Origin: a bacterium
Lineage (GTDB): Bacteria > Patescibacteriota > Minisyncoccia > Phycocordibacterales > UBA9973
NCBI GenBank assembly: GCA_021824345.1
Contig: JAKAKW010000003.1
Span: 1 to 60,150 of the forward strand
Length of the DNA: 60,150 nt
Reading direction: 5' to 3'
Part shown: positions 2,702 to 4,616 of the stretch, in pieces
How positions within the stretch are numbered: position 1 is the first letter of the stretch
Layout of the letters: every line of letters begins with the position of its first letter
Translations under genes and position numbers: made by a program
The notes under the pieces: generated by a model
Database searches by the model: none
What the model saw: only the letters and a program-made list of their open reading frames with translations
What the model was told of the DNA's origin: nothing

Positions 2702-3007
2702 TCCGGAGTAGCTCAATGGTAGAGCAATCGACTGTCAAAAGGCAGCTTTTCGGTAAAAGCCGAATTGTCAAACGAGGTGAATTCGGGGAAACCCACAAAG
2801 TAAATTTGGGGGCAATCCCGAGCCAAGCTCTGAATTTTCAGAGAAGGTGTAGAGACTATCCGTCTAGCGGAGTAGTCCGATGCAAATCGGACGAAGCGCC
2901 TCGCTCCTAAATCTCAAAAGAGACATGGAGATGATATAGTCCACGCTCCTAGCAATAGGGGATAAAGTGTAATCGATTGGTTGTAGGTTCGAGTCCTACC
3001 TCCGGAG
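2702..3007 (+). tRNA. tRNA-Asn(GUU), intron-split; exons 2702-2735 and 2970-3007
   Basis: Joined exons give a 72-nt cloverleaf: acceptor TCCGGAG/CTCCGGA, anticodon stem ATCGA/TCGAT, loop CT-GT|T-AA, T-loop TTCGAGT. Confidence 0.95.
2736..2969 (+). ncRNA. Group I self-splicing intron (IC3-like), no ORF
   Basis: P1 CUGU|C-AAAA-GGCAG with U.G at the splice site; P3 2773-2779/2897-2903; P AATTCGGGGAAA, Q AATCCCGAGC, R GTAGAGACTA, S GATATAGTCC; terminal omega-G at 2969. Confidence 0.95.
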
Positions 3008-4198: not shown

Positions 4199-4519
4199 AT
4201 GGCAAACATATCAGCAGAAAGATGGCATCAATTGTCGCTCGCCGAACAGCTCGGCAATATCGGGAGCGAGGTAGGGCGCGCGGCCAAATGGCAGGGGAAG
4301 GACGAGAACTCTTTCTGGAGCGCTGTATCACGCGCCCTGGAGCTTTTTGACCTTACCCAGAGCGACAGGCGGTGGGGCTCTCGGCGCAAGGAGCTTGACC
4401 GCACCAGAGAAGTTTTCGCGGACGCAGTGCTCGGCGGGAAAGAATACAAAAGCAATCTCGAAGATCTGGAAAAATATTTCATGCCGTTTGCCCTGAGAGC
4501 TATTTCTGAAAGATCTTAA
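4199..4519 (+). CDS. Helical hypothetical protein, partner of DUF5674
   Basis: RWHQLSLAEQLGNIGSEVGRA...ALELFDLT...KELDRTRE; starts 2 nt after the DUF5674 stop. Confidence 0.75.
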   Translation: MANISAERWHQLSLAEQLGNIGSEVGRAAKWQGKDENSFWSAVSRALELFDLTQSDRRWGSRRKELDRTREVFADAVLGGKEYKSNLEDLEKYFMPFALRAISERS

Positions 4520-4546
4520 TTACGCATATATTTTCCCGTTATCTCA

Positions 4547-4572
4547 TTTCGAACATTCTCCCAGGTTCGGAG
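4547..4572 (+). repeat. 26-bp direct repeat, copy 2
   Basis: TTTCGAACATTCTCCCAGGTTCGGAG. Confidence 0.85.
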
Positions 4573-4616
4573 TAAGATATTCTTTTCTCACTTTCTGGTG
4601 TGATACAATCAAATAC

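Follow-up and report, generated by a model that had tools for sequence, protein, structure and literature searches.

The interrupted tRNA-Asn gene

The DNA analysed here, hereafter called the window, is a stretch of 60,150 nucleotides (nt) of contig JAKAKW010000003.1 in assembly GCA_021824345.1, from a bacterium of the lineage UBA9973 in the order Phycocordibacterales (Patescibacteriota). On its forward strand, at 2702-3007, it carries a gene for tRNA-Asn(GUU) which is interrupted by a group I intron of 234 nt, occupying exactly positions 2736-2969. Both had been proposed in an initial annotation, and all the features described there, including every helix named, were verified base by base at their positions.

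When 2735 was joined to 2970 in silico, the product was a 73-nt cloverleaf which ARAGORN called as tRNA-Asn(GUU). The joined exons have 83-90 % identity with the uninterrupted tRNA-Asn(GUU) orthologues of sister genomes, and some uninterrupted sister genes have exactly the same exons as relatives with the intron. In the empty-site orthologues, found in the same-genus genomes G002, G005, G018, G022 and G023, CTGT is followed directly by TAA. The junction of 2735 with 2970 (35/36) is the only one possible, because it alone regenerates the empty-site sequence CTGTTAA. The gene is split between U35 and U36, a position which is fixed by the wobble pair of U35 with G, by the last intron nucleotide (omega-G2969) and by the uninterrupted orthologues. 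The initial annotation had placed the split at 35/36, with GU and U rejoined as the anticodon, and this was borne out by the matching exons of the uninterrupted orthologues and by covariation of the P1 pair beside the splice site, described below. The CCA end is not encoded; the discriminator base G73 is followed by CAA.

A comparison with the Rfam model Intron_gpI (RF00028), suggested in the initial annotation, gave a match at 2674-2962 with 63.2 bits (gathering score 50, E=1e-13), and a run over the whole genome returned 2725-2962 with 57.9 bits. In addition, a covariance model, hereafter called R1, was built from eight relatives; it covers 201 positions from P3 to omega-G. The exons, the intron and its helices are the following.

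2702-2735, + strand: 5' exon, 34 nt, tRNA positions 1-35, ending C32 U33 G34 U35; sequence TCCGGAGTAGCTCAATGGTAGAGCAATCGACTGT
2736-2969, + strand: group I intron, 234 nt, without an open reading frame (ORF), IA-like; 63.2 bits with RF00028 and 203 bits with R1
2732-2745, + strand: P1, in which CUGU and the first intron base C (2732-2736) pair with the guide GGCAG (2741-2745), loop AAAA, 5/5 pairs
2749-2754/2759-2764, + strand: P2 hairpin, UUCGGU/GCCGAA, loop AAAA, 6/6 pairs
2773-2779/2897-2903, + strand: P3, CGAGGUG/CGCCUCG, 7/7 pairs
2783-2788/2816-2821, + strand: P4, enclosing P5/P5a
2792-2799/2805-2812, + strand: P5/P5a, inside P4
2822-2848, + strand: P6 (GCC/GGU) and P6a (2828-2833/2838-2843)
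2852-2858/2937-2942, + strand: P7, G(A)GACUA with bulged A2853 pairing with UAGUCC, 6/6 pairs; pseudoknot and guanosine-binding helix
2859-2862/2868-2871, + strand: P7.1, between P7 and P3'
2875-2881/2886-2892, + strand: P7.2, with a GCAA loop, between P7 and P3'
2904-2930, + strand: P8 (CUCC/GGAG) and P8a (UCUC-AAAA-GAGA)
2946-2961, + strand: P9 hairpin, CUCCUA-GCAA-UAGGGG
2969, + strand: omega-G, last intron nucleotide
2970-3007, + strand: 3' exon, 38 nt, tRNA positions 36-73 (U36 A37 A38 ... G73); sequence TAATCGATTGGTTGTAGGTTCGAGTCCTACCTCCGGAG

At the 5' splice site, U35 (2735) and G2742 form the wobble pair, and the AUGAUA of J8/7 lies directly 5' of the 3' strand of P7. The minimum-energy fold of the sequence recovered most of the listed helices, and none of 200 shuffled sequences folded as well (z=-4.28). 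The presence of both P7.1 and P7.2 is a hallmark of IA-type introns, the comparison with that class being confined to this hallmark. Because these two hairpins are present, the architecture of the intron is IA-like rather than that of the classical IC3 type of tRNA introns. The intron had initially been described as minimal; it is compact, but because of the two further hairpins, P7.1 and the GCAA-capped P7.2, it is not minimal.

Covariation and relation to known introns

Pairs were counted in a model-based alignment of 37 sequences, with 54 pairs in 11 helices; P1 and P2, which lie outside R1, were assessed separately. Standard pairs were formed in 95.0 % of the helix cells, compared with 38-48 % when the partners were slid by one to three columns. 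Compensatory changes, affecting both sides of a pair, were found in 39 of the 54 pairs, and none of 500 shuffles reached any of the five measures. P3 was paired in 97.7 % of its cells and had changes on both sides at five pairs, P4 switched as a block between UCGGGG/CCCGA and UGCUGG/CAGCA, and all six pairs of helix 5, in the P6/P6a region, had changed on both sides. The hairpins P7.1 and P7.2 (helices 7 and 8) contributed three and four covarying pairs, respectively, and P9 (helix 11) five of its six pairs. In the alignment of the eight relatives, compensatory changes were also present at all six pairs of P2. The window copy had the highest score of all against the R1 family model.

Of the 36 homologous genes parsed, 35 retain the guide GCAG and all retain the exon sequence CUGU. 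The P1 pair beside the splice site, formed by intron position +1 and the nucleotide 5' of GCAG, occurred as C-G, G-C, A-U, U-A or G.U, and these five pair types at a fixed CUGU/GCAG fix the register of P1. All 36 homologous introns end in omega-G, which stands directly before UAA (Asn) or CAC (Asp).

In the preprint of Williams (2020), the four classical classes of tRNA and site, Leu.3Ug, Arg.5Ug, fMet.2Ug and Ile2.5Ug, all of them IC3, are extended to 21 (bioRxiv 10.1101/2020.01.27.920355). The classical hosts and sites given in the initial annotation (Leu, fMet, Ile and Arg) agree with these four. The seed alignment of the same preprint holds Pam37.Asn.4Ug, Wba81.Asp.4Ug, Mba143.Tyr.4Ug and Mpe6.Lys.4Ug, position 4 corresponding to 35/36, and the preprint reports no splicing assay (bioRxiv 10.1101/2020.01.27.920355). 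The report of 35/36 introns in tRNA-Asn and tRNA-Asp which the initial annotation mentioned does exist, in the form of Pam37.Asn.4Ug and Wba81.Asp.4Ug; the initial annotation spoke of Patescibacteria, but the distribution described below is wider. The window intron shares with the Asn.4Ug class of the preprint the host tRNA-Asn(GUU), the 35/36 site after the fourth nucleotide of the anticodon loop, U at position -1 and G at the omega position. Between P7 and P3', Pam37.Asn.4Ug likewise has two extra hairpins, after which comes AGCGCC. In a comparison made by eye against the alignment in the supplement, the two introns seemed to have AAUUC..GGAAA, GAGACUA, the two hairpins, AGCGCC and GAUAGUCC in common. 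They differ in that Pam37.Asn.4Ug comes from another genome and in that the P1-P2 region of the window intron is much shorter.

The classical IC3 introns of tRNA genes are likewise small group I ribozymes in a bacterial anticodon loop, with a U.G wobble pair in P1 and an omega-G, and by analogy the splicing chemistry would be expected to be equal. Their sites and hosts are different: the introns of Azoarcus tRNA-Ile(CAU) and Agrobacterium tRNA-Arg(CCU) lie at 36/37, that of Anabaena and other cyanobacterial tRNA-Leu(UAA) at 34/35 and that of cyanobacterial tRNA-fMet at 33/34. Unlike the window intron, they have no P7.1 or P7.2 in Williams' alignment. Hairpins of this kind between P7 and P3' are known from IA introns such as that of phage T4 td, and an intron in the T-loop of the Clostridium botulinum transfer-messenger RNA (tmRNA) was reportedly classed as IA3 by Williams in 2002. 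In Williams' seed alignment, tmRNA introns occupy the same P7.1/P7.2 columns as Asn.4Ug and likewise continue with AGCGCC. Some phage introns also carry an HNH-type endonuclease, as do the mobile relatives of the window intron; the hosts of the phage td and tmRNA introns are a protein gene or tmRNA, in contrast to the tRNA anticodon here.

Distribution, mobility and the second split tRNA

Homologues of the intron detectable with BLAST were found in 12 of 40 close relatives. When 301 genomes of the order were searched with R1, 146 had a match with E<=1e-4 and 63 (about 21 %) a match of at least 100 bits. The best 29 foreign loci comprised 27 complete tRNA-Asn genes split at 35/36, one Asn 3' exon at the end of a contig and one tRNA-Asp gene split at 35/36. 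A wider pattern scan, with one genome per species, looked for the 3' strand of P7 followed by 18-45 nt, a G and the tRNA-Asn 3' exon, and matched at least 120 stretches. Among the matches listed, a fitting 5' exon with CTGT at its end could be located 206-590 nt upstream at 53 of 80 loci, and in all 51 loci tested a full-length R1 match stood directly before the 3' exon, with scores of 27.6-190 bits (above 54 bits in 50 of the 51).

The verified loci included Patescibacteria (Paceibacterota, Saccharibacteria, Moranbacteria, Falkowbacteria, Portnoybacteria and others), Cyanobacteria (Microcoleus, Tychonema, Phormidium, Hormoscilla and Floridaenema) and Acidobacteriota (Pyrinomonadaceae and Blastocatellia), as well as Nitrospira, Elusimicrobia, Ignavibacteriae, Binatia, Pirellulales and Aminicenantales. 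The family is present in at least eight phyla, and because verified loci occur outside the Patescibacteria the intron type is not special to that group. In filamentous cyanobacteria of the genera Microcoleus, Tychonema, Floridaenema and Phormidium (loci L082, L089, L093, L106, L120 and L143), tRNA-Asn is split at 35/36 by an intron of 273-302 nt which scores about 87-90 bits with R1. A survey of cyanobacterial tRNAs published in 2017 lists no Asn intron (PMC5733544). The window intron is one of hundreds of such copies and an ordinary member of a catalogued type; the current understanding of group I introns is unchanged by these results.

Within the genus the site is polymorphic, the intron being present in G001, G007, G008, G009, G015, G016 and G020 and the site empty in the five genomes named above. 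Among the 36 homologous introns, 14 are 538-591 nt long and contain, in the P1 loop, an ORF of 104-133 codons (171 in one reading) with the motifs CxxC...HH...CANCHRE. The ORF matches HNH endonucleases (PHROG 2255, 1.8e-28; Pfam HNH, 17-22 bits, around the cut-off), and at its 3' end it extends into the guide and P2. The life cycle of the element is visible within the family and also within the genus, as copies with the HNH gene, copies without an ORF and empty sites.

The window copy has a P1 loop of only four bases, and its longest ATG ORF has 19 codons. A tblastn search of its own genome with the HNH proteins of 13 relatives found no homologue. As the initial annotation stated, the intron cannot home by itself, because it has no ORF and the genome contains no HNH homologue. 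It is best read as the descendant of a mobile element whose HNH gene has been lost, and in a tree of the ribozyme core it groups with ORF-less copies from the same genus. The tRNA-fMet intron of Synechocystis PCC 6803, which encodes the homing endonuclease I-Ssp6803I, likewise belongs to a family with ORF-bearing and ORF-less copies and a patchy distribution. I-Ssp6803I is a PD-(D/E)xK enzyme, whereas the ORF of the relatives described here encodes an HNH protein in the P1 loop and the window copy lacks an ORF.

An extended -10-like sequence (TGGTATAAT or TTGATATAAT) precedes the HNH ORF at loci L009, L013, L016, L058, L062, L064, L065, L067, L070, L078, L079 and L081. The sequence of these introns suggests that the intron may contain a separate promoter for expression of the endonuclease.

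A change of host was also detected. At locus L072 (G226:C2), a tRNA-Asp gene on the minus strand (1462-1773) is split at 35/36 by an intron of the Asn lineage, with P7.1 and P7.2 and an R1 score of 141 bits. This intron lies inside the Asn clade as the sister of L075 (support 0.935), a nesting which shows that the intron has moved from tRNA-Asn to tRNA-Asp at least once, at the CUGU common to both.

The genome to which the window belongs has been assembled to 0.83 Mb in 16 contigs, with an estimated completeness of 99.97 %. In it, ARAGORN found 44 other tRNAs, none of them for Asn or Asp. The search for an intronless tRNA-Asn elsewhere in the genome, which had been suggested in the initial annotation, was made with the joined tRNA-Asn and returned only the two halves at 2702-3007. 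The only tRNA-Asp(GUC) gene of the genome was located on contig C11 at about 4336-4613 (locus L002, 1552-1829). A group I intron of 203 nt interrupts it, likewise at 35/36: the 5' exon ends in CCTGT, the intron begins with AGATTTTGCAGC and ends with GGATAAGTG, and the 3' exon begins with CACGCGAG. This intron is the second-best group I match of the genome, with 41 bits for RF00028 and 58 bits for R1. It lacks P7.1 and P7.2, and its core, GGAUAACGGUGAAGGC..., resembles Mba143.Tyr.4Ug of Williams' alignment. The tRNA-Asp intron is therefore of a different lineage from the tRNA-Asn intron, with the same guide.

In this genome the two GUN tRNAs, Asn and Asp, are thus each encoded by a single gene, which is split, and, as there is no other gene for either, both introns would have to be removed for translation. 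It is conceivable, though very unlikely, that the two introns, both with CUGU/GCAG, act as a checkpoint which ties the supply of two tRNAs to the guanosine-nucleotide or Mg2+ state of the cell; such a checkpoint would mean that ribozymes act as a brake on translation in these ultra-small symbionts.

Proposed splicing of the precursor and alternative readings

The gene at 2702-3007 is very probably a single tRNA-Asn(GUU) gene, split between U35 and U36 by an ORF-less group I ribozyme of the Asn.4Ug class which is predicted to be functional. The precursor would be transcribed from a promoter-like block near 2626-2653, and P1 would arise by pairing of the guide GGCAG with C32-U35 and the first base of the intron. 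P7 would bind an external guanosine, which would attack after U35, at the U.G wobble; omega-G2969 would then take the same site in P7, and the freed 3'-OH of U35 would attack after G2969. CUGU would be joined to UAA, restoring the anticodon loop CU-GUU-AA, and RNase P and the CCA-adding enzyme would finish the tRNA. Because there is no other tRNA-Asn gene, the intron would be obliged to splice, and it would now be inherited as a fixed passenger.

Several points weigh against this interpretation. The splicing chemistry, the use of the promoter and the processing of the ends are all inferred. P1 has only 5 base pairs (bp) and a loop of 4 nt, and no convincing P10 can be drawn, so that the anticodon stem would be needed to align the exons. 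P7 is invariant in all 37 homologues, as is most of P4, and these helices give no covariation signal; because it is invariant, P7 is neither supported nor opposed by covariation. The alignment used for the pair counts was fitted to the model structure and hence favours that structure; the conclusion on structure is still safe in view of the slid controls and of how many different pair types occur. Finally, an assembly in 16 contigs leaves room for a second tRNA-Asn gene in a gap.

The identity of the gene could also be read differently. With default settings ARAGORN found three other tRNAs in the window and none at 2702-3007, which agrees with the initial expectation that standard tRNA callers can miss this gene. 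With introns allowed (-i), it returned Thr(tgt)i(33,234) at 2702-3007, a tRNA-Thr(UGU) whose intron would lie at 33/34, two bases closer to the 5' end, an arrangement in which a U stands before the 5' site and G2967 before the 3' site. This call is almost certainly wrong, and the Thr reading was rejected. In P1, U33 forms a Watson-Crick pair with A2744, and the wobble pair is U35.G2742. The empty-site orthologues give the Asn junction, and the body of the exons is Asn-like: it starts with UCC, has the discriminator G73 and is 83-90 % identical to the tRNA-Asn(GUU) of relatives, whereas the tRNA-Thr(UGU) of a relative starts with GCC and looks different. The genome already has a tRNA-Thr(UGU) gene, on contig C14, and no Asn gene, and homologous introns which end in ...ACG or ...AUG permit Asn only.

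The same error is common in the family. ARAGORN -i mislabelled 13 of the 36 homologous genes (including loci L006, L008, L011, L057, L061-L063, L067, L073 and L074), mostly as Thr(UGU) with an intron at 33 and mainly where the intron ends in GUG; there were also one 'Stop(tta)' and one 'Thr(ggt)'. It has been reported that some tRNAs of the candidate phyla radiation (CPR) are hidden from detection by group I introns (Lui et al. 2021; PMC8172020), and tRNAscan-SE 2.0 was, according to its own paper, not designed to detect group I introns in tRNAs. When tRNA finders miss or mislabel these genes, the genomes seem to lack tRNA-Asn and tRNA-Asp, and such an apparent loss of tRNAs can mislead completeness checks and claims of a reduced translation machinery in the CPR.

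The intron might also be a dead relic and the gene a pseudogene, asparagine codons being decoded with an unassembled tRNA-Asn gene or with tRNA from a host cell. What would allow this is that expression of the locus is so far only predicted, that the assembly is in 16 contigs, that the homing endonuclease has been lost from the window copy and that such organisms presumably live attached to a host. It is nevertheless extremely improbable, since every core helix is intact in the copy with the highest R1 score of all (203 bits), both exons are intact and give a normal cloverleaf, and the estimated completeness is 99.97 %. Moreover, the split arrangement persists in about one-fifth of the order and also outside it, in other phyla, and the compensatory changes in these copies indicate selection on the RNA structure. 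We also consider it unlikely that the intron is removed in vivo only with a protein cofactor, either a chaperone or a maturase-like protein, and is not an autonomous ribozyme in the cell. Several group I introns do need protein helpers, such as CYT-18 or CBP2; the short P1 of 5 bp and the lack of an evident P10 would fit such a need, and the literature searched contained no assay of splicing of a tRNA-Asn intron at 35/36, the matches for tRNA-Asn with group I introns being mostly from organelles. Against a need for a cofactor, no part of the core is missing and it is strongly stabilised by two GNRA loops and by three GC-rich helices (P3, P4 and P7.2), the tRNA introns of Azoarcus, Anabaena and Agrobacterium self-splice in vitro, and the window copy encodes no protein. 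The family to which this predicted Asn.4Ug ribozyme belongs is an abundant group of tRNA introns, IA-like rather than IC3, which has apparently never been tested at the bench.

Two further features were noted upstream of the gene.

2626-2653, + strand: promoter-like block, -35 TTGTTT (2626-2631), 16-nt spacer, -10 TACTAT (2648-2653); putative function
2678-2696, + strand: GC-rich leader hairpin, GCGCGTAC-TTA-GTGCGCGC, 8/8 bp paired, 5 nt upstream of the tRNA and outside the intron

A block similar to the first, CTTGTTTTTT...TTAAGAT/TAATAT...GTTCTTT, is found upstream of tRNA-Asn in relatives of the same genus. A scan of the upstream region for consensus promoters and terminators did not call the promoter-like block, and its sole 'terminator' was the P1 hairpin itself. 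The leader hairpin at 2678-2696 was not found upstream of tRNA-Asn in relatives, and it may be a leader structure or a small insertion. The Rfam alignment places P1 on this hairpin, which was rejected as an artefact of the model, the real P1 being at 2732-2745 and the hairpin absent in relatives.

The tRNA-Asn gene is flanked upstream by a VIT-family gene on the minus strand and downstream by an AAA_33 kinase-like gene. In another genome, at locus L015 (G027:C2, 1390-1670), a tRNA-Met(CAU) gene has an insert of 208 nt after position 33, with a weak match to R1 and in BLAST; it adjoins an uninterrupted tRNA-Met and a tRNA-Asp. The insert is probably a group I intron of the fMet/Met.2Ug type. 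Two sub-threshold group I matches in the genome of the window, at C16:655-920 and C3:96848-97151 (minus strand), with 31.7 and 26.7 bits, adjoin sequence resembling rRNA and follow a stretch that looks coding; they are probably rRNA introns with an ORF, such as have been reported for the CPR.

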